IMG/VR virus record: IMGVR_UViG_3300037183_000082
Location: 1 to 64,000 of that record
DNA from: a virus
Taxonomy: Duplodnaviria > Caudoviricetes
Strand: one strand, 5' to 3'
DNA: 64,000 nt
The translations under genes and the position numbers were made by a program. This document shows positions 4,425-34,259 of the stretch, one piece after another. The notes under the pieces were generated by a model. The model searched no databases. It had not been told where the DNA came from and saw only the letters and a list, made by a program, of their open reading frames with translations. Position 1 is the stretch's first letter; each line of letters begins with the position of its first letter.

Positions 4425-5117
4425 TCACGCCACCGCACGACGGCGGAAACCGTCGAGGAAGAGACGGCACACGAGGCGCGCGTCCGTTTGCAGGTTGAGG
4501 CCCGCGACCTCGCCCTTGTTGAAGCTGAGCGCGACCTTGAAGGCCTCGCCGCCTGCGACGTAGAGCGGGCTCGCCAACGCGCGCACGCCCTCGGTGCTGG
4601 TCGAGCCGTTGTAGGCGACCGCCGTGCCCGTGGCGCCGTCCGACACGCGTGTCAGACCGCCCGAGTACACGTGCTGGACACCCGCGGCGCCCGGCCAGTA
4701 CGACAGCGGGCTCTGGGTGTAGTTCTTGACCGCCGCGATCGACAGCTCGATGAGCGTGTCGCGCTGCAGACGAAGCATGTCGGGCAGCGGGACCTCAGGC
4801 TGGTCCGGGTCGGGGAACGCGTTCGGGTCCAGGGCAAGGCCCTGCTTGAACACGTCGATCGCGAGGTAGTGAATCGCGATCTCCTCGTTCTCCGGGAGCT
4901 TCGAGCCCTCGCCCTGCAGGTTGGTGTCGATGGCGGTGGCCATGCGCGGCCCGACGCTGCCCGGCACCACGTCGCCTGACGTGTAGCTGAACGCGTTGAG
5001 GGTCGTGATAGGTCCCGCCGCGACCTCGACCGTGGACCAGAGAGGGACGGCAGACGTCCACTCGCCGGGAACCACGACCATGCCATTCGGTAGACGCATT
5101 TTGCGAATCTGTGCCAT
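4425..5117 (-). CDS. putative major capsid protein, single jelly-roll type, paralog 2
   Basis: N-term QIRKMRLPNG-VVVPGEW-SAVPLWST; C-term RLFLDGFRRRAVA. Confidence 0.65.
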   Translation of the reverse strand: MAQIRKMRLPNGMVVVPGEWTSAVPLWSTVEVAAGPITTLNAFSYTSGDVVPGSVGPRMATAIDTNLQGEGSKLPENEEIAIHYLAIDVFKQGLALDPNAFPDPDQPEVPLPDMLRLQRDTLIELSIAAVKNYTQSPLSYWPGAAGVQHVYSGGLTRVSDGATGTAVAYNGSTSTEGVRALASPLYVAGGEAFKVALSFNKGEVAGLNLQTDARLVCRLFLDGFRRRAVA

Positions 5118-22767: not shown

Positions 22768-24435
22768 ATGACATCGCTGCGTTACCGTCTCGCGTCCAGC
22801 GCACGCTGGGCCTCGCTTATTTGGAGCGAGGAGCGGGGCCACTCCCAAGAGTTTCTTTTGGCGTGCGCAGCGGCACTTCCCATCCCCGGGGTGCGTGAGC
22901 ACCCAAAGGCGATCGATGTTCCCGTAACGGCTTTCATGCTGCCGGAAGTACATCGGTTGTTTGCGGCAGCTCGGGTCGACATCCCTACCCCACGTTCGGA
23001 TGTCGACCCGGGCAAGCTGTGGTCACCACAGCAAAAGCCCTTTGATCACCAAGTGGAAGGTGCGCGCTTCATCGTGAACGCGGGCTCTGCACTTGTCTGC
23101 GACGAAATGGGAGTCGGTAAGACTCGCACTGCGATTCAGGCTGCGCAGTCTGCTCGACTTAGCTGGGGCGGACCTGCTGTCATTGTTGCACCCAAGTTCA
23201 CCCGCGCGACTTGGTTGCGCGAGCTGCTCGCGACAGGCGCCATCGAAAACCCCACCCAGTTCTGCGCGCTCGAATCGCGCGACCTCGGAGATAGCTCGTT
23301 TCGCGCCGGCTGCCACTACTACTTCGTGCACTACGACGTCGTTTCGACGTGGTGGACACGCCTGCAGTCGTCTGAGCGCCCGACGGTGACCATCGTCGAT
23401 GAGGCGCACTGGATCAAGAACGGCCGGGCCAAGCGATCCAAGGGCGCAGATCTCGCAACTGCCGGCACTCACATGCGGATTTTGCTCACGGGCACGCCGC
23501 TCGTGAACAGCCCTGCAGACCTCTGGTACCCGCTTCAATGCGTCACAGGAGCATCCACTTGGGGCAGTCCGCTCGACTTCAGGGTTCGCTACAACGGTGC
23601 GATACGTACGTCGTATGGTCATAAGGACCTAGGGCCAACCTACACGAACGAGCTGCGTCTGCGCATGGCGCCTTGGTACCTGCGCCGCACGACTGAACAG
23701 GCCGGCCTGCAGCTCCCTGCGCTCACGCGCACCGCAGTCGAGTGTGAGATGTCGCGCGCGCTTGCTCGCGAGCACAGCGGCATTCTCGGCAAGGTCGATC
23801 CGGCAGCCATCGTCACCGCGATCTTGGAAAACCGGATGGGGACCGAGACGCTCAAGATGCTCAATCGGCTGCGCCAGATCACGTCCGCGGCCAAGCTCGG
23901 CGACACCGCCGAGTACGTGAGCAACATCCTCGACCAGGGCGACGCCGCGGTGGTGTTCGTCTGGCAGCCCGAAACCGCCCGCAAGCTTCGCGCGCGCATG
24001 GCCGAGCCTGACGCGCACGCTGAAATCACAGGTGACCAGGACCAAGGCACGCGCGACGCGTTGATCGCAGCGTTCCAGGCCGGCGCGGGGCCCGCCGCTC
24101 TGTTCTGCACCTACGGCACCGTGCGCGAGGGTGTGACGCTGCATCGCGCGCGCCATGTTGTGCACCACGACCTCGACTGGACAGCCGTCACCATCCAGCA
24201 GGCTGAAAAGCGCATTCACCGCATCGGCCAGAACCGCGCTTGCACAGCCACTTGGATGGTCGCGCGCAACTCGATGGACACCATTTTCGCGGAGGTTCTG
24301 CGCGCCAAGCTCGACGCCGCACAGCAGGTGTTCGGCGACGCGAACCCCTTCGAGGCATCTCTCGACACGATTTCGGTCGGCATGTCCCTGCAGGACAAGA
24401 TGCGCGCCGCGATCGAGGAATGGCGGGCGTGGTGA
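22768..24435 (+). CDS. SNF2-family (SF2) helicase
   Basis: DEMGVGKT (I), DEAH (II), LTGTP (III), REGVTL (V), QAEKRIHRIGQ (VI). Confidence 0.92.
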   Translation: MTSLRYRLASSARWASLIWSEERGHSQEFLLACAAALPIPGVREHPKAIDVPVTAFMLPEVHRLFAAARVDIPTPRSDVDPGKLWSPQQKPFDHQVEGARFIVNAGSALVCDEMGVGKTRTAIQAAQSARLSWGGPAVIVAPKFTRATWLRELLATGAIENPTQFCALESRDLGDSSFRAGCHYYFVHYDVVSTWWTRLQSSERPTVTIVDEAHWIKNGRAKRSKGADLATAGTHMRILLTGTPLVNSPADLWYPLQCVTGASTWGSPLDFRVRYNGAIRTSYGHKDLGPTYTNELRLRMAPWYLRRTTEQAGLQLPALTRTAVECEMSRALAREHSGILGKVDPAAIVTAILENRMGTETLKMLNRLRQITSAAKLGDTAEYVSNILDQGDAAVVFVWQPETARKLRARMAEPDAHAEITGDQDQGTRDALIAAFQAGAGPAALFCTYGTVREGVTLHRARHVVHHDLDWTAVTIQQAEKRIHRIGQNRACTATWMVARNSMDTIFAEVLRAKLDAAQQVFGDANPFEASLDTISVGMSLQDKMRAAIEEWRAW

Positions 24436-25451
24436 TCCTCGACATCCTATACGACCCGATGCCCGCTGCGAAGCGCCCGACCGAGCGGCGTGCGCTAGGC
24501 GAGGTCGGCATTCCGAACGAGGGGGCCTCGCCCACGGGCAGCTCGTTCTACAAGACGTTGCTCGCGTGCCCGCGGGAGTTTGCGCTCGCGCACGTCGAGG
24601 GCATCCGGCCTGTGATCGAGCGCGACGAGCTGTCGATCGGGATCATCTTCCACCACGCGCTCATGGTGTACTACCGCGCGATCTACGAGCACCAACAGCG
24701 GTGCAAACCGGCCACGCGCTGTCCTGTCGGCAATGAAAAGCTAGCGCCCGAGTGGCAGCACTTCTTCTGGGGCAACCAGCGCGAGGCTGGCCAGGCTGCG
24801 TTTGCGTCCGTGCTGCAGCTCGCAGCAGAGCCTGGCTACACGGAGATCTACGAGACCGTCGAGCGCTGCCTTGAAGCCTATTTCGAGACCTATTGGCGCA
24901 CCGACCGCTGGATTGTCGTCGCGGTCGAGGAGACGATCATTCGCAACGGGTTGCCGACGCCATGGAGCGCACGCCTCGATCTATTCATCCACGACATGAA
25001 AGACGACGGCCTGTGGATCTGCGAGCACAAGACCGCGAAGTTCATCAACGCCGACCTCATCGACAACTATGAGATGGACATTCAGATCCTCGGCCAAAAG
25101 TGGCTCGTGCAGCGTTGTGTTGATCTCACCGCGTACCCGCACTTCAAGGGCGTGCTCATCAACATCGTGAGCAAGGCGAAAACACCCAAGCTCGTGCGCA
25201 CCCAGGTAAGCCCGAGCCCCGCGCACCTGCGCGAGTTCGAGAACACGCTCGCGAGCCTTCCCGTGCAGCGCAAGGTCTATGAGCGCCTCGGTTGGCCGAA
25301 GTTCCTCGGCCACTGCTCGGGCTACGCGCGCGGCTACTCGCGGTGTCAATTCTATTCGCTTTGCCATGACTACCCGGAAGTCACGCCCGCGCAGTGGCGC
25401 GGCTTCGATTTGCCGGAGGAGTTTGAACGTAAGGAGGTTGCTGTGCCCTAG
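24432..25451 (+). CDS. PD-(D/E)XK nuclease, Cas4/RecB-like
   Basis: AVEE..ARLDL..CEHKT catalytic motifs, QILG motif, N-terminal Cys (CPRE) plus C-terminal C-x9-C-x5-C. Confidence 0.8.
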   Translation: MILDILYDPMPAAKRPTERRALGEVGIPNEGASPTGSSFYKTLLACPREFALAHVEGIRPVIERDELSIGIIFHHALMVYYRAIYEHQQRCKPATRCPVGNEKLAPEWQHFFWGNQREAGQAAFASVLQLAAEPGYTEIYETVERCLEAYFETYWRTDRWIVVAVEETIIRNGLPTPWSARLDLFIHDMKDDGLWICEHKTAKFINADLIDNYEMDIQILGQKWLVQRCVDLTAYPHFKGVLINIVSKAKTPKLVRTQVSPSPAHLREFENTLASLPVQRKVYERLGWPKFLGHCSGYARGYSRCQFYSLCHDYPEVTPAQWRGFDLPEEFERKEVAVP

Positions 25452-25501
25452 TGCTTTGTACGGCACGGTTTTGCGCCGCACGGTACTGCACCGTCAGGTA
25501 G
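25452..25501 (+). repeat. period-5 NGY-NN tract 1 (10 units), candidate guide RNA
   Basis: tgctt tgtac ggcac ggttt tgcgc cgcac ggtac tgcac cgtca ggtag; 10 of 10 fit NGY. Confidence 0.85.
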
Positions 25502-25529
25502 AAAGATGGATTCAAAAAGTTTCTGCCGC

Positions 25530-25635
25530 GGTTCTGTCAATCGTGGTTCGGTAGCGTGGGGTTCTGTGGAGTTAGTTTATGCAGCGTGATGTCTCCTAGC
25601 GTCATGTTTGGCTCGGTTCGGCTCTAGTTCGGTTC
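25530..25635 (+). repeat. period-5 NGY-NN tract 2 (21 units, one 1-nt slip), candidate guide RNA
   Basis: ggttc tgtca atcgt ggttc ggtag cgtgg ggttc tgtgg agtta gttta tgcag cgtga tgtct cctag cgtca tgttt ggctc ggttc ggctc (t) agttc ggttc; 18 of 21 NGY, 21 of 21 Y at position 3. Confidence 0.85.
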
Positions 25636-25663
25636 GACAAGACGAAGAAAAGGGTGGTTTTCA

Positions 25664-26332
25664 ATGCAAAGAACAAGAATCAGTTTCGAGGGTGTGAGTC
25701 CGCTTCTACAGAATCGGATGTCAGAGGAACAGCTCATGGCGCTCTTTACGAAAGAGCCGAGCACGCGGCGCAAGTTCGAGGCGCCCAAGGACATTCGCGA
25801 GACGGCGCGAAGCAAAGTACACATGACCGAGGCAGGACTGCCCTACGTTCCGGCAGAGATGTTCATGTCGTGCTGCATCATCGCAGGTCGCTTTATCAAA
25901 CTCGACGGCAAGCGGCAGATGTCGACAGCTAACTCGACGCTCCTGCCCGGCTTTCTCTCAGTCGAAGAGACGTTCTTCTACCTCGTGGACCCGCGACAGG
26001 GCGGCCCGGCCGAGTGGGCAACAGCTACGCAAACAGCCCCGGCGCAGCCAAAACACCCAGCTGAGTGGGAATCCGACATTCGACGTGGTGTGAGCAACAA
26101 CGCAGGTGGAAGCGCCGTTGCCATCGTACGCCCCCGCTTTGATCGCTGGGGTTTCACGGTGACGTGCATGCTCGACACCGATCAGCTCAGTGAAGCAACT
26201 TTCCGCGAGCTGTTCGATATTGCTGGCTCGCGCGTCGGGATCGGCGACTTCCGTCCGATGCGCAAAGGCATTTACGGTCGTTTCAAGGTCACAGGCTGGC
26301 AGCGCATGGACGAGCTGAAGTCCGCATCATGA
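25664..26332 (+). CDS. stand-alone RAMP / Cas7-like RNA-binding protein
   Basis: RAMP-like motifs: first strand ISFEGVSPLLQN, PYVPAE, thumb-like ..VAIVRPRF, C-terminal Gly-rich loop GSRVGIGDFRPMRKGIYGRFKV. Confidence 0.75.
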   Translation: MQRTRISFEGVSPLLQNRMSEEQLMALFTKEPSTRRKFEAPKDIRETARSKVHMTEAGLPYVPAEMFMSCCIIAGRFIKLDGKRQMSTANSTLLPGFLSVEETFFYLVDPRQGGPAEWATATQTAPAQPKHPAEWESDIRRGVSNNAGGSAVAIVRPRFDRWGFTVTCMLDTDQLSEATFRELFDIAGSRVGIGDFRPMRKGIYGRFKVTGWQRMDELKSAS

Positions 26333-27069
26333 GCAGCTTGCTCGCCAAATGTCTGAACGCGCAGACGATCAACACCGATGGGCAACTGCCCTGGCTGCAC
26401 TTCTTCGTGTATGGCGAGGGCGGAAGTGGGAAAACCACACTCTGCGCGACCTTTCCGCGTCCGCTGCTCCTCGTGCCGAAGATTGAAAACTCGGTCACGA
26501 CGCTTGCAGGACAGGACGTGCCCTACCTCTTTACGGATGGCCGGAACGCGACCCTTCGCAATGGCTGCGGCGGCCTTGAAACCATCGTGGCGATGCTTGA
26601 GAACGAGTACACCGCGAACCCTCAGGCCTTCCCGTTCGATACGATCTGTCTGGAGTCGTTCTCGCACTACATCGAGATCTTCCAAGAGGAGCTGACGCAG
26701 GGCAACAAGACGGCCATGGACCAGCGCGGCTGGGGGTTGCTCGCCACCCACGTCCGCAACATCCAGGCCCGGCTGCGCGCGCTCGAAGTGCACGTGGTGT
26801 TCACGGCGCTCGCCAAGCTTGAAACCGACGCTGCCGGCCACACGCATGGCGGCCCGATGCTCCCGGGCAAGACGGCGGCGATGCTTCCGACCGCGTGTGA
26901 CGTCGTTGCGTACTGCGAGGCCGGCACAGGCAAGGTGCCCATCTACAAGACGCACTTTCGCCGGCACAACCACTTCTTTGCGCGCACGCGCTTCAAGAGC
27001 CTGCCGGCTGCCATCGAAAACTGCACTTTCGAGAAGATGCGTCCATTCCTGGACGGATCTGCTCAGTAA
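26329..27069 (+). CDS. AAA_24 / Sak4-like recombination ATPase
   Basis: VYGEGGSGKTT Walker A, TICLESFS Walker B, WG motif, HVVFTA. Confidence 0.85.
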   Translation: MSSLLAKCLNAQTINTDGQLPWLHFFVYGEGGSGKTTLCATFPRPLLLVPKIENSVTTLAGQDVPYLFTDGRNATLRNGCGGLETIVAMLENEYTANPQAFPFDTICLESFSHYIEIFQEELTQGNKTAMDQRGWGLLATHVRNIQARLRALEVHVVFTALAKLETDAAGHTHGGPMLPGKTAAMLPTACDVVAYCEAGTGKVPIYKTHFRRHNHFFARTRFKSLPAAIENCTFEKMRPFLDGSAQ

Positions 27070-29590: not shown

Positions 29591-29988
29591 CACCCGTCCA
29601 ACTTGAGAGCCCTTACGCAGGCCACGTCCATCGCAACAAGGCCTACCTACAGCTCTGCATCCGCGATTGCTTTGAGCGCGGCGAGGCGCCATTCGCGTCG
29701 CACCAGCTCTATGTGGATGCGCTCGACGACGACATCGCGATCGAGCGAAAGCAGGGCATCGAAGCGGGCTTGATCTGGGGCAAGTTCGCCGAACGTACGG
29801 TGGTCTACACAGACTTCGGGATTTCGAGTGGCATGAAGCACGGAATCCTTGCGGCCGAGAAGCTTCGACGCCCGTGCATTTTTCGCACGCTGAAAGACTT
29901 CGACCGCGTCACGTTCTACACGGCGACTGACGAGCTGCAAGAGACAGACTGGCACGAGCTGCTCACACGCTGCCGGAGCGTGCGATGA
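29587..29988 (+). CDS. phage protein with ESPY motif (nucleoside deoxyribosyltransferase-like fold)
   Basis: LESPYAG..GEAPFASH..VVYTDFGISSGM. Confidence 0.7.
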   Translation: MTPVQLESPYAGHVHRNKAYLQLCIRDCFERGEAPFASHQLYVDALDDDIAIERKQGIEAGLIWGKFAERTVVYTDFGISSGMKHGILAAEKLRRPCIFRTLKDFDRVTFYTATDELQETDWHELLTRCRSVR

Positions 29989-32900
29989 GCCCGAACCGCC
30001 CGACGCGTTTTCCGATCTACACCGAGGCGCACGCCAACTGCAGCAAGTGCGAGCTGCAACCAGCCTGCGAGGACGGCAAGGTCGTACAGGCCTACCAGCC
30101 GGCCAGCGACGCGCCTTTCAACGGTATCATGATCGTGGGCGAGGGTCCCGGGCATCACGAGGTCATCCAGGGCCGCCCGTTCGTGGGACCTTCCGGGCGC
30201 TTGCTCCGTGCGATTCTCAAGTCGCTCGGGGCTGATCTCGACGCTTGCTACATCACCAACGCAACGTTGTGCCGACCGCCTATCACGGCATCGGATGACA
30301 AACGCTCGTTCATGCAGAAGTTCCCCCGCGCGGTGCACAGCTGCCTGCCGCGCCTGGAGCTTGAGATCACTGCTGTCCGCCCGCGCGTGATCCTCGCGCT
30401 CGGGGCACAAGCCCTGGCTGCGCTCACGGGCTACGAGGAGCACTACACGAAGCTTCTGCCCGCGCCGCCGTGCGAGACGTGTAAGGGCGGCCATGTGCTG
30501 AAAGACGGTGGGGAGACGCCGCGCAGGGTGGTCGGCGTGCAGTGCTCCAAAGGTGAGTGCAAGCACCGCATTCTCTTGCCGCCCCAGTTCGAGGGAAAGA
30601 AGGTCAAAGGGCTCGATCTGCCCGATATCCTGCCCACGGATTGCCCCAAGTGCGGCGCGACCTTGCAGCGGCTCACGGTGCGACAGATCCCGTGCCCGAC
30701 CTGCGGCGGCCTCAAGCGCGTCGAGACGCCACTTGTGAACTTTCGGTGGGACTACCAGCTCGGCGAGGTCGCAGGGGCTGTCATCGATGCGAGCAAGCAC
30801 GGGTGGGAGACGTGTGGCGTGCGGTACGTGATCGCGACCTACCACCCCTCGTTCTTGCTTCGACCTCCGCCCAGCTCAGGCACGGGCGAGGACAAGGCCA
30901 TGGGCGGCCAGTACGCGGCGCCTTGCGTTCAGAAGCACATGAAAAAGTCGCTGCGTCTACTCACCGAGGACGCGGACTGGTCCACAGGTTTTGAGGTCAC
31001 AGACGAGTCGGACCACACAGACGCTGCGGCGCACTTGCTCGACTACATCTACGGCGACCCGGCAGTCACCGAGTTCACATGCGATATCGAGAGCGAGGGC
31101 TGGGGCTCCGAATACGTCTGCCAGGTGTGCGAGACGAAGTCTGGGATCATCCGCACCGCACCACCGACCGAGCTGTCCGCCGAGCTGCACCATTGCGAGA
31201 CGTGCACAACCGCCGCGAACGCAGTTTTGCGGGCGGAGAACAAGGAAGAAACGGGCCCGCTGTTCACGCAGCACGTGCCGATCGTAAAAGAGCTGGACGC
31301 CCGCAAGATCGCCGAGGTGTCGAAGATCAAGATCCTGGGGTTCGCGAGCCGTAAGCGTGGCTATTCGTTGGTCACAGACACGCGCACGCTCGACCCTGAC
31401 AATACAAGCGACCCGCTCTATCAGGCCATCGTCAAGGTGCTCACCGACACGACCTTGCGCATCTGCTTTCACCACGGCAACTACGACGTGCCGGCGCTGT
31501 ACAAGCTCTGGGGCATTGAGGTCAAGAACTACACAGACGACACGCTGATCCTGCACCACGATCTGTACCCGGACGAAAAGCACTCGCTGTCGCACGTCGC
31601 ATTCGAGTTTACCGATGTCCACGCGTGGAAGCCGCCCAAGAAACTTCACAACCGACTCGCGCACGAGTCGTTCGAGGAAGAGTGCGCGTACAACGCACGC
31701 GACACGATGCTCACGGACGACTCGCTCCAACAGATGAAGCTCAAGCTTGCCCCGAAGCACCTCGATAAGGTCTACGCCATCGACATGCAGCTGCAGCAGC
31801 AGGCTGTTGAGATGTGGCGCAACGGGATGTACGTCGACAAAGACAACGCCATCCGCATCGGCCAGGAGGCAGTCGACCGCGAGCTACGCCTGCAAGCCGA
31901 AATGCGCAAGCTGCTCAAGTGGGACAACTTCAACCCGCGTTCTGCCACGCAGCTGGCTGAGGCGCTGTTCGATCGCTTTGGCTACACGCCCTCGAAGATG
32001 ACTGAGGGTGGCGCGCGCTCGACCGCGAAAGAGGTCGTGCTGCGGCTCACAGACAGCCCCTTTAAGCGCCTCGTGCTCGACCACAAGGATGCCGTGGCCA
32101 CGCTGGCTAACTTCTTCGAGGTGGTAGACAACCGCGCCTACCCGGGGCGCAGCCTGCGCATCTGGAACGACCAGCGCATCCGCGCGACGTGGAAAGCGTA
32201 CGGCGCACGCACGGGGCGTTTCTCGTCCAATCCCAACTTTCAAAACTGGAAGGCGTGGCTCAAGGCACTCGTGACCTGCGCGCCAGGCCGCAAGATCGTG
32301 GGTGCCGATTACGACCAGCTGGAGCTGCGCATTCTTGCTGCCCTGAGCGGTGATCCTGTGCTCATGGAAAAGTGTCTGAACGCCGACGAGAACGACAAGC
32401 TCAACCCGGACAAGGACCCGCACAGCTACGTGGCGTTTTTCGCGTTCGGCAAGCTGTTCACGGATCTAGACAAGAACGACCCGGCGCACGACAAAAAGAA
32501 CGAGCGCTGCAAGTGCCAGAAGTGCGAGCGCAAGGCCCTGCGCGATATCTGCAAGCGTGTGATCTACGGCATGAACTACGGCGCGGGCGACGAGACCGTG
32601 CTCGAAGCCATCTATTCAGGCGGGTACAACGGCCCGCCCATCTCGCTCGACATGATCGGCCGCGTCCGCAAGGCCATCTACACCGCGTTCAGTGGGATCA
32701 AGGCCTACCAGGAAAAGCTCTACACCGACGCCGTCAAGAACAAGGCGATCTTTTCGCCGCTGCTCGGCCGCCGTCGGATCTTCCCGCTCGGCGATGTGCC
32801 GTTCACCGAGATCCTCAACTTCCCAATCCAGTGTCTTACCGGCGCGACGCGCGTTCTCACTGATCGCGGCTACCAGACGCTCGAAAGTCTCAACGCGCTC

Positions 32901-34259
32901 ACGCAAGCACATACGGGCAGCGAACAGGTGCAAGCACGGGTGCTCTCGAAGGGCGCGGAGCAAGTTTGGCGTGTGACGCTAGACAACGGGCAGCAAATCG
33001 AAACGAACGAGGGTCACTATTTGCTCGGCACGAACGGCTGGCTCGCGACGGGTGAGCTGCAGCCTGACACACTGATCGCGCAACCACTTGCACGAGAGCA
33101 GCCAACGCGCCGTGACATGACGGCAGGTTTCGGGCGGGACCCGGACACGTTCTACTGGCTCGGCTACTACGTCGGCAACGGTTCTTGGGATACCGACGAT
33201 GCGATCAAATTCGCGTTCGGTTCGCGTGTGAAGCGGCAACACCATAGTGAATACGCCACCAAGTTCCTGGAGTGGGCGCGCTTGCACGAGCTTGCACCGC
33301 AAAAGCCGCAGATCGAGCTAAACCTTACTTGCGTGACGTTGCAGAACCACGCGGCGCGCGAACTGTTCACAAGTCTCGGCGTTATGCCCGGGGCTGGCGC
33401 GCATCAAAAGCGGCTTCCGGAAGCTGCGTGGGCGGGCTCGATTGCGGAGCGCAAAGCCTTCTTGGTCGGGCTGCTCGATGCCGACGGTTCGCTTGCGACA
33501 GACCCGCCCAACATCACGTTGTGCAACCGCGCTTTGCTTCAGGACGTGCAGCTCCTACTGCGGACGGTCGGGATTCCGAGCCGCCTGTACGGGCCCTATG
33601 TCGCGGATCGTGCGGGTCACCTGGCGTGGCGTCTCACGATTCCAGGGACGCTGCTCACACGACTCGGGTACGGGCAAGCGCAGCGTGTGCGGTACCCGAA
33701 TGACGTGTCACTGGATCCGACCTCTATTGCGGAGTTTCTGGATACGTTCCCCAAGAATCCGTTCAGTTTTTCGACACAGCAAAGCATGTACATGCTCTGG
33801 CGGCGGATCTCAGAGGGTGGTTTCACGAACCCCCACACGCTTTTACGCATGTGGGAGGCGCTCGACGCAACACCGACCCAACCGATTTACGCTTTCCATG
33901 CGGTGCGCAGCGTCGAGCGTTTGGATCGCGCGGCGCCGATGTTCACGCTTCACGTTGACCACCCACTCCATCGTTACGACAGCGCTGGCGTGATCAGCAA
34001 AAACTCAGGCGGCGCAGACATCATGAACCAGCGCAATCTTATCTTCGGTGGCGAGGTGCGCAGCATCGATCCCACTGCGATGTACATCGCCCAGGTGCAC
34101 GACGCCGTCTACTACGAAGTCGACGAGCAGCGCGCGCCCCAGGTCGCAGACCGTATGACCGAGGTCCTCACCTGGGATACCGCGATGTACGAAGGCGGCC
34201 CCGTGATGCACTTCAGTGCGCAGGCGTCCATTGGCGACACCTGGAAGGCGGCAGCATGA
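29985..34259 (+). CDS. family A DNA polymerase with N-terminal uracil-DNA glycosylase domain, 3'-5' exonuclease and an intein
   Basis: UDG-4 motifs GEGPG/PFVGPSG/YHPS; exonuclease DIESE, DDT; polymerase RTGRFSS, DYDQLELR, KRVIYGMNYG, NFPIQ-SGGAD, QVHD. Confidence 0.93.
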   Translation: MSPNRPTRFPIYTEAHANCSKCELQPACEDGKVVQAYQPASDAPFNGIMIVGEGPGHHEVIQGRPFVGPSGRLLRAILKSLGADLDACYITNATLCRPPITASDDKRSFMQKFPRAVHSCLPRLELEITAVRPRVILALGAQALAALTGYEEHYTKLLPAPPCETCKGGHVLKDGGETPRRVVGVQCSKGECKHRILLPPQFEGKKVKGLDLPDILPTDCPKCGATLQRLTVRQIPCPTCGGLKRVETPLVNFRWDYQLGEVAGAVIDASKHGWETCGVRYVIATYHPSFLLRPPPSSGTGEDKAMGGQYAAPCVQKHMKKSLRLLTEDADWSTGFEVTDESDHTDAAAHLLDYIYGDPAVTEFTCDIESEGWGSEYVCQVCETKSGIIRTAPPTELSAELHHCETCTTAANAVLRAENKEETGPLFTQHVPIVKELDARKIAEVSKIKILGFASRKRGYSLVTDTRTLDPDNTSDPLYQAIVKVLTDTTLRICFHHGNYDVPALYKLWGIEVKNYTDDTLILHHDLYPDEKHSLSHVAFEFTDVHAWKPPKKLHNRLAHESFEEECAYNARDTMLTDDSLQQMKLKLAPKHLDKVYAIDMQLQQQAVEMWRNGMYVDKDNAIRIGQEAVDRELRLQAEMRKLLKWDNFNPRSATQLAEALFDRFGYTPSKMTEGGARSTAKEVVLRLTDSPFKRLVLDHKDAVATLANFFEVVDNRAYPGRSLRIWNDQRIRATWKAYGARTGRFSSNPNFQNWKAWLKALVTCAPGRKIVGADYDQLELRILAALSGDPVLMEKCLNADENDKLNPDKDPHSYVAFFAFGKLFTDLDKNDPAHDKKNERCKCQKCERKALRDICKRVIYGMNYGAGDETVLEAIYSGGYNGPPISLDMIGRVRKAIYTAFSGIKAYQEKLYTDAVKNKAIFSPLLGRRRIFPLGDVPFTEILNFPIQCLTGATRVLTDRGYQTLESLNALTQAHTGSEQVQARVLSKGAEQVWRVTLDNGQQIETNEGHYLLGTNGWLATGELQPDTLIAQPLAREQPTRRDMTAGFGRDPDTFYWLGYYVGNGSWDTDDAIKFAFGSRVKRQHHSEYATKFLEWARLHELAPQKPQIELNLTCVTLQNHAARELFTSLGVMPGAGAHQKRLPEAAWAGSIAERKAFLVGLLDADGSLATDPPNITLCNRALLQDVQLLLRTVGIPSRLYGPYVADRAGHLAWRLTIPGTLLTRLGYGQAQRVRYPNDVSLDPTSIAEFLDTFPKNPFSFSTQQSMYMLWRRISEGGFTNPHTLLRMWEALDATPTQPIYAFHAVRSVERLDRAAPMFTLHVDHPLHRYDSAGVISKNSGGADIMNQRNLIFGGEVRSIDPTAMYIAQVHDAVYYEVDEQRAPQVADRMTEVLTWDTAMYEGGPVMHFSAQASIGDTWKAAA
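32832..34004 (+). mobile_element. intein (391 aa) with LAGLIDADG homing endonuclease
   Basis: Starts CLTGATRV, has block B IETNEGH, LGYYVGNG and GLLDADG motifs, ends SKN before Ser; removal restores NFPIQ-SGGAD. Confidence 0.9.

Follow-up and report, generated by a model that had tools for sequence, protein, structure and literature searches.

The virus record analyzed here is an 80.6-kb genome with direct terminal repeats and a G+C content of 64%, and the window, that is, the whole stretch of DNA that was analyzed, comprises its first 64 kb. In this window, genes for an SNF2 helicase (22768-24435) and a PD-(D/E)XK nuclease are followed by a gap of 212 bp, a gene encoding a protein of 222 amino acids, and a gene for a Sak4-like AAA_24 ATPase, after which come, in this order, genes for a DUF669 SSB-like protein, a Dam methylase, a DUF7768 protein, and a UDG-PolA fusion with a LAGLIDADG insert. 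The gap sits inside a replication-recombination module and is periodic in tract 1, which directly follows the nuclease gene, and beyond that tract as well (Table 1). The boundaries of the nuclease gene were taken from the gene call on an identical Logan contig. In the UDG-PolA fusion (29985-34259, 1424 aa), the LAGLIDADG domain occupies residues 1156-1217, which suggests an intein or a homing-endonuclease insertion in the polymerase.

Table 1. Features of the locus in coordinates of the window; the names vipr and vrRNA are those of the VIPR systems discussed in the text.
Feature	Positions	Strand	Basis or content
PD-(D/E)XK (Cas4-like) nuclease gene	24429-25451	+	Pfam PF12705, E 1.8e-8; phrog_1218 exonuclease
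Tract 1, predicted repeat region of vrRNA 1	25452-25501	+	10/10 perfect NGY-NN pentamers
Linker, putative 3' tail of vrRNA 1	25502-25529	+	AAAGATGGATTCAAAAAG TTTCTGCCGC
Tract 2, predicted second vrRNA repeat region	25530-25574	+	8/9 NGY-NN units
Tract 3, candidate third vrRNA or 3' half of one long vrRNA	25580-25624	+	8/9 NGY-NN units
Last tail or leader	25625-25663	+	Shine-Dalgarno-like AAGGGTGG at 25650-25657, 6 nt before the vipr ATG
vipr gene, 222-aa single-domain RAMP (Cas7/Csm3-like)	25664-26332	+	Model, Foldseek, profile matches
Sak4-like AAA_24 ATPase gene	26329-27069	+	PF13479, E 8.8e-22; phrog_124

Tract 1 reads TGCTT TGTAC GGCAC GGTTT TGCGC CGCAC GGTAC TGCAC CGTCA GGTAG, with the NN string TT AC AC TT GC AC AC AC CA AG. 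The original prediction had described it as ten perfect NGY-NN units beginning at the nuclease stop codon, with a chance of 0.15-0.17 per unit and below about 1e-7 per position for ten in a row. On re-reading, all ten units follow the N-G-Y-N-N pattern and, the nuclease TAG occupying 25449-25451, the tract begins exactly at the next base. The measured frequency of NGYNN units in the window is 0.177, which corresponds to ~3e-8 per position for a run of ten, in agreement with that estimate. When the complete 80,634-bp genome was simulated 200 times with a first-order Markov model and both strands were scanned, runs of at least 10 units occurred 0.005 times per simulated genome. The motif was chosen after looking at the sequence, yet homologous genes in dozens of unrelated contigs are preceded by it as well (see below), which removes the concern about post hoc selection. 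The description of the tract as something other than a simple tandem repeat stands insofar as Tandem Repeats Finder reported no tandem repeat within it; the accompanying statement that no unit recurs is only nearly true, given an imperfect 15-nt duplication (25455-25469 compared with 25470-25484, 80% identical), which is the sole internal repeat. The first G of the GGY triplet is present in 4 of the 10 units (G1 = 40%). Short ORFs overlap the tract, and no conserved peptide reading was seen over it.

Elsewhere in the window, nine consecutive NGYNN units were found at 4937-4981 on the minus strand, which is the sense strand of a 230-aa CDS (4425-5117). No tail-like sequence comes after this run. 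Runs of at least 9 units arise 0.045 times per simulated genome, and this one is probably due to chance.

The A-rich linker that had been reported after tract 1 is present as described (AAAGATGGATTCAAAAAG). The last unit of tract 1 together with the AAA that follows can pair with TTTCTGCC to form an 8-bp stem with a 15-nt loop; this candidate tail hairpin, in which GGUAGAAA pairs with UUUCUGCC, has a free energy of -8.7 kcal/mol, a weak result (z -1.6, with 19 of 200 shuffles as good). Tract 2 (GGTTC TGTCA atcgt GGTTC GGTAG CGTGG GGTTC TGTGG AGTTA) and tract 3 share one phase that is offset by 3 from that of tract 1. Over 25530-25624, 16 of the 19 units conform to the pattern and 3 are broken; the chance of at least 16 of 19 is ~5e-10 per position by a binomial estimate at 0.177 per unit. 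No significant fold was detected for the 212-bp gap as a whole (z -0.9) or for its parts, and searches for tRNA, tmRNA, and Rfam families produced no match. A scan of 25200-25900 for sigma-70-like promoters found none, and co-transcription with the upstream genes is therefore assumed. The terminator scan yielded a single terminator-like hairpin, located at 25387-25402 inside the nuclease gene. In an independent Logan contig from a near-identical relative, the gap is identical.

The 222-aa protein, whose gene starts 162 bases downstream of tract 1, belongs to phrog_4652 and contains no Pfam domain, nor does any of its more than 200 homologues. The AlphaFold2 model, built from a 35-sequence alignment (pLDDT 88.9, pTM 0.86), retrieved mostly Cas7-family RAMPs, namely Csm3, type VII Cas7, and Cmr4, among the top 60 Foldseek hits in the PDB (E ~1e-5, probability 1.0), and an independent aligner, VIA-align, gave Z 10.9 to Csm3 over residues 1-222. 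As modeled, the protein has the fold of a Cas7/Csm3-type RAMP with an RRM core, a glycine-rich loop, and a thumb; the C-terminal G-loop reads G-I-G-D-F-R-P. The companion claim that a stand-alone RAMP/Cas7-like gene lies at this locus is correct at the level of the fold, according to the model, Foldseek, and VIA-align. As to the gene boundaries, the public gene call P0001 (198 aa, start 25736) begins 24 codons too far downstream: the alignment with homologues extends to the ATG at 25664, and the Shine-Dalgarno-like AAGGGTGG lies just before this codon.

A plain tblastn search of GenBank phages with the 222-aa protein found no match. A profile of the family matched the genome of Escherichia phage SUSP1 (KT454805.2, 28495-29064, minus strand, E 4.2e-9), and the match falls within the annotated CDS ALH47069.1 (28474-29061), which is vipr. 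The hhalign comparison with SUSP1 Vipr gave a probability of 97% and an E value of 8.5e-11 over 178 columns, at ~22% identity, and the only PDB sequence match of the profile is 36pp_D, "SUSP1 Vipr protein" (E 2.7e-7).

VIPR is a CRISPR-like RNA-guided DNA silencer of viruses that was first described in 2026 (bioRxiv 10.64898/2026.04.26.720920, 10.64898/2026.04.26.720927, 10.64898/2026.10.15.759431). In the first of these, the systems are described as consisting of Vipr, a RAMP of ~20 kDa, and of vrRNAs made up of 9-16 YNNGG (GGY/NN) pentamers with a 3' tail, and as being found mostly in phages and proviruses; the NN pairs determine which double-stranded DNA is targeted, one base being skipped before each pair, (xNN)n, and binding represses transcription of competing mobile elements (bioRxiv 10.64898/2026.04.26.720920). 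The same preprint distinguishes seven types (I-VII), with NNNGG, YNNNG, and NNNNG as alternative scaffolds and GGY in the characterized systems, describes working systems in which internal degeneracy is frequent and YNNNG variants occur, notes stand-alone vipr genes, and treats an accessory vap gene beside vipr as typical but not universal (bioRxiv 10.64898/2026.04.26.720920). A VIPR system is expected to carry an invariable, structured 3' tail behind its repeats and to express its vrRNA as an RNA of ~100 nt that co-purifies with Vipr. The preprint further reports that SUSP1 has, upstream of vipr, a vrRNA that is a working guide (bioRxiv 10.64898/2026.04.26.720920). The companion structural preprint describes the gapped R-loop geometry and one protomer per repeat, with G1 contacted by H17/D177, G2 by R138/W178, and Y3 by E71/M72/R179 (bioRxiv 10.64898/2026.04.26.720927), and the third preprint is concerned with phage-satellite conflict (bioRxiv 10.64898/2026.10.15.759431).

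The SUSP1 residues H17, E71, M72, R138, D177, W178, and R179 correspond, in both hhalign and MAFFT alignments, to N17, E65, M66, R156, D195, F196, and R197 of the 222-aa protein, so that six of the seven GGY-contact residues are identical or conservatively replaced. The exception is H17, which reads G1 in SUSP1 and is N here, as in most of the clade. Among 82 family members, R-D-F-R is nearly invariant; across the 82 loci, the residue at the H17 position showed no link to G1 usage, which ranges from 3% to 100% in loci with N17. The thumb region of the protein (residues ~107-150) carries an insertion of ~15-17 residues that is missing from all 34 aligned homologues, and its thumb loop has the sequence VSNNAGGS in place of the RNPN-GGE shared by at least 90% of the family; the model has a pLDDT of 68-75 there.

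The run-finder that we used here, when applied to SUSP1, recovered tracts of 11-14 units, one of them upstream and three downstream, as the paper reports. Under the definition of vrRNA genes as tandem pentamers of at least 4 units beside vipr, the tracts of our locus lie on the vipr strand, 0-212 nt upstream of the gene. The locus shares with the type II VIPR of SUSP1 a small single-RRM RAMP with a G-loop (GDxRP) and a thumb arginine; sense-strand tracts of ~10 pentamers beside the gene, with G-Y fixed and NN hypervariable; and the setting of a virus-borne system with no CRISPR array, no other cas genes, and no self-target. It differs from SUSP1 in several respects. The first G is relaxed (NGY, which fits the YNNNG class of the preprint), together with the replacement of H17 by N; the tail is short and A/T-rich, without a demonstrable SUSP1-like pseudoknot; and the gene belongs to a replication-recombination operon of a 64% G+C, 80.6-kb virus. 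All tracts are located upstream, in the one 212-bp gap, and the downstream array is absent: the ATPase start overlaps the vipr stop (ATGA), leaving no room for the downstream vrRNA array that is seen in most relatives.

The closest structural matches, the Cas7 proteins of class 1 CRISPR systems (Csm3, Cmr4, and type VII Cas7; Foldseek E 1e-5, VIA Z 8-11), share the RRM core, the G-rich loop, and the thumb, and likewise polymerize along a guide RNA with periodic base flipping. However, Cas7 covers 6 nt per subunit with one base flipped, its guides come from spacer-repeat arrays, and its partners are Cas5, Cas6, Cas10, and Cas11, whereas our locus has a period of 5 with three constant bases per unit and lacks both an array and other cas genes. 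Specifically, no 16-mer occurs at least three times at a spacing of 40-100 nt in the 80.6-kb genome, and no cas domains were detected among ten neighboring genes.

We retrieved 81 related loci from viruses and MAGs (28-50% protein identity) with 70 distinct upstream regions. When 250 bases upstream of the gene were scanned on the sense strand, perfect NGYNN runs of at least 6, 8, and 10 units were found in 43, 37, and 27 of these 70 regions, respectively; the longest reach 37 units inside the 250-nt windows and 86 units when followed through whole loci. The pairing of tract and gene spans genomes from 28% to 78% G+C, with low-G+C genomes using TGTNN and high-G+C genomes using GGCNN, and in the low-G+C loci, the pattern is strongly specific to the sense strand of the gene. 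Further tracts are located just downstream of the gene in most of the related loci. The original prediction asked whether NN varies among relatives while NGY is conserved, and the family tracts do not refute it: when 198 tracts of 74 related loci are compared, the entropies of positions 4 and 5 are 1.93 and 1.97 bits, that is, NN is nearly random, with G2 and Y3 fixed and position 1 being G in 57% and T in 22% of the units, in a comparison that spans divergent loci, the sole near-identical contig having an identical gap. Tracts of this clade usually end with NGYAA, followed by GGG or GGAT, often by a T run, and sometimes by a hairpin, although no conserved structured tail could be demonstrated. 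Behind the upstream tract of the nearest relatives come GGG or GGAT and a T-rich stretch, and vipr starts within ~25-35 nt.

The relatives come in part from MAGs assigned to Planctomycetaceae, several Patescibacteria lineages, and Gammaproteobacteria. Seven Vipr relatives with 31-38% identity (L128, L130, L131, L133-L135, and L137) are on contigs of up to 857 kb from Patescibacteria/CPR MAGs, so that CPR genomes or their surroundings commonly harbor this clade of Vipr. Some of the tracts are far longer than the 9-16 pentamers of a vrRNA: in-phase, uninterrupted runs of 43-86 pentamers occur in L063 (2003-2432 and 3098-3387), L082 (3066-3380), and L072 (1856-2070), and may represent the "staggered" overlapping arrays of the preprint. 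In L010 (3160-3570) and L012 (2080-2540), successive tracts are separated by copies of a conserved spacer with a hairpin in it, such as CTCCGCGAGCCGAAAGGCTCGC in the case of L010; these spacers may be processing elements or hammerhead-type ribozymes, which the preprint reports between vrRNAs in some types. The N-terminal ~150 residues of the predicted protein P0028, rich in G, W, A, and R, are a spurious translation of two upstream pentamer tracts, an example of gene callers reading vrRNA genes as protein.

None of the neighboring gene families is conserved within 2.5 kb of vipr in the 81 related loci, so the RAMP gene and the tracts behave as a self-contained cassette. A nuclease gene is found next to vipr in 1 of the 81 loci (L010), and the nuclease of our locus probably belongs to the replication module of the virus rather than being a dedicated VIPR accessory gene; its neighbors in general (nuclease, SNF2, Sak4-like ATPase) look like such a module. 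No vap-type DNA-binding partner was recognized beside vipr in the window. It is conceivable, if quite unlikely, that Vipr-vrRNA might recruit the Cas4-like nuclease and the Sak4-like annealing ATPase to a DNA site specified by the gapped code, resulting in RNA-guided cutting or recombination and not only a transcription block. Such a reading is based on tract 1 abutting the nuclease stop codon and on the overlap of the vipr stop with the start of the ATPase gene; because the neighbors are not conserved in relatives, a functional coupling with the recombination operon is a low-probability speculation.

With a one-base skip, tract 1 decodes to TTxACxACxTTxGCxACxACxACxCAxAG; if the skipped base were the third codon position, this would read [F/L]TT[F/L]ATTT[H/Q][S/R], and the other strand L[C/W]VVVA[K/N]VV[K/N]. 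The gapped-pattern search with the NN string, put forward with the original prediction, did not turn up a target: nothing above chance emerged from the genome itself, 89 loci, IMG/VR, GTDB genomes, or JGI metagenomes, the scans of the collections being limited to exact matches, where the preprint's criterion is 80%, so that these negatives are weak. In the virus's own genome, there was no match at up to 3 mismatches, the best being 15 of 20 under every skip rule. Guides A, B, and C (tracts 1, 2, and 3) had no exact match in IMG/VR, and the tract 1 guide had none in JGI metagenomes. In 596 Gb of GTDB genomes, the tract 1 guide had two exact matches, one in an Asgard MAG and one in a Bacteroidales MAG, with ~1 expected by chance; these MAGs are implausible hosts for a 64% G+C virus, and the two matches are at chance level. 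The central eight units of guide A matched 35 times in IMG/VR, which is about the chance expectation given a rough guess of the collection size, and the best extension of these matches, 18 of 20, does not exceed the chance expectation for the flanking units. One conserved sequence, ATACCACCTTGGCTACAACTACGCA, recurs in about half of the 35 loci (among L091-L123), in IMG/VR phage contigs of 38-45% G+C, and matches the central eight units of guide A exactly and neither flank; it lies outside long in-phase ORFs in the two loci that were checked, and we treat the match as chance.

What is observed at these loci is how the repeats are built, which fold and homologues the protein has, and that tract and gene remain paired across the family, and on the strength of these observations we consider it very probable that the 212-bp gap encodes two or three vrRNAs and the 222-aa gene their Vipr protein. 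The claim of a guide-like RNA, with NGY as the scaffold, NN as the information, and a RAMP as the partner, is supported by the RAMP fold, the homology to SUSP1 Vipr, and the vrRNA-like architecture.

We weighed this assignment against readings in which the tracts do not guide anything. The first of these is an RNA leader: Vipr would bind the tracts in its own mRNA and autoregulate vipr and the downstream recombination genes through occlusion of the ribosome-binding site at 25650-25657, with no targeting role for NN. The tracts do occupy the 5' leader and, as is the case for the nearest relatives, ~25-40 nt separate the last of them from the start codon; the target search found none, and the window virus has no downstream array. 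We nevertheless regard this reading as improbable: the upstream vrRNA of SUSP1 is a working guide, and most relatives carry downstream arrays, where control of vipr translation is impossible. Feedback and guide function are, furthermore, not exclusive.

A known precedent for such a regulatory track is the trp RNA-binding attenuation protein (TRAP), whose sites consist of (G/U)AG triplets with spacers of 2-3 nt. TRAP shares with our locus the periodic triplet plus 2-nt spacer and the binding of one protein subunit per repeat. It differs in its architecture, which is an 11-mer ring with an unrelated fold, in its function as a regulator of attenuation, in having spacers that carry no information, and in a number of repeats fixed near 11. 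A TRAP-like autoregulatory RNA track was kept as a minor rival only, since the fold and the literature pointed to VIPR.

Somewhat less credit still goes to decay, in which the cassette would be degenerating and the tracts would be remnants of vrRNA genes that are no longer used. The relaxed consensus (G1 in 40% of the units), the 3 of 19 broken units in tracts 2 and 3, the departure of the thumb loop from nearly invariant family residues, and the fruitless target search speak for this reading, but tract 1 is perfect in 10 of 10 units, the vipr frame is intact, the thumb arginine and the G-loop residues are kept, and the sequence is unchanged in an independent sample. The degeneracy and YNNNG variants that the preprint reports in working systems also speak against decay.

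Least probable of all, in our estimate, is that the gap holds an element acting at the level of DNA, such as iterons, an operator, or an origin with a period of 5 bp or 15 bp, or that it contains a pattern due to chance or a gene for a small peptide: the imperfect 15-bp direct repeat in tract 1, the location in a replication module, and the overlapping short ORFs could be read in this manner, but the simulation and the presence of the motif at dozens of loci exclude chance, low-G+C relatives have it with a strong preference for the sense strand of the gene, unit numbers from 8 to 86 and random NN do not fit an operator, an iteron, or a conserved peptide, and the replication-gene neighbors are not conserved while the RAMP gene always is. 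The reading of the 15-bp repeats as DNA iterons or an operator was dropped on the basis of this family comparison. A G-quadruplex (GGNNN) was rejected because GG is present in 4 of 10 units only and low-G+C relatives use TGT.

Under the VIPR assignment, transcription and processing, filament assembly, skip-one reading, and silencing can be pictured by analogy with the preprints. As in SUSP1, the gap would be transcribed, here on the plus strand and probably within the replication-operon transcript, and the transcript would be cut into RNAs of roughly 60-100 nt. Vipr protomers would polymerize along each RNA, one per pentamer, with every G-Y, along with the base before it wherever that base is G, flipped into pockets formed by the thumb R156, the G-loop D195-F196-R197, and the helix-1 E65/M66, leaving the ten NN dinucleotides of tract 1 exposed. 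With every third base skipped, these dinucleotides would recognize 29 bp of double-stranded DNA that match TTxACxACxTTxGCxACxACxACxCAxAG on one strand or the other, and the gapped R-loop formed in this way would prevent a competing mobile element from being transcribed.

How VIPR works, which code it uses, and what biological role it has are already described in the preprints, and the locus is most likely a further, somewhat divergent example of these systems. It adds a divergent high-G+C case, with a protein ~22% identical to that of SUSP1, and, together with its relatives, indicates that a pentamer tract plus a lone RAMP gene travels as a cassette across very different genomes, from 28% to 78% G+C. 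For the biology of VIPR, the useful features are the relaxed N-G-Y scaffold, found together with asparagine at the position that reads G1, and a clade that has no conserved accessory gene.
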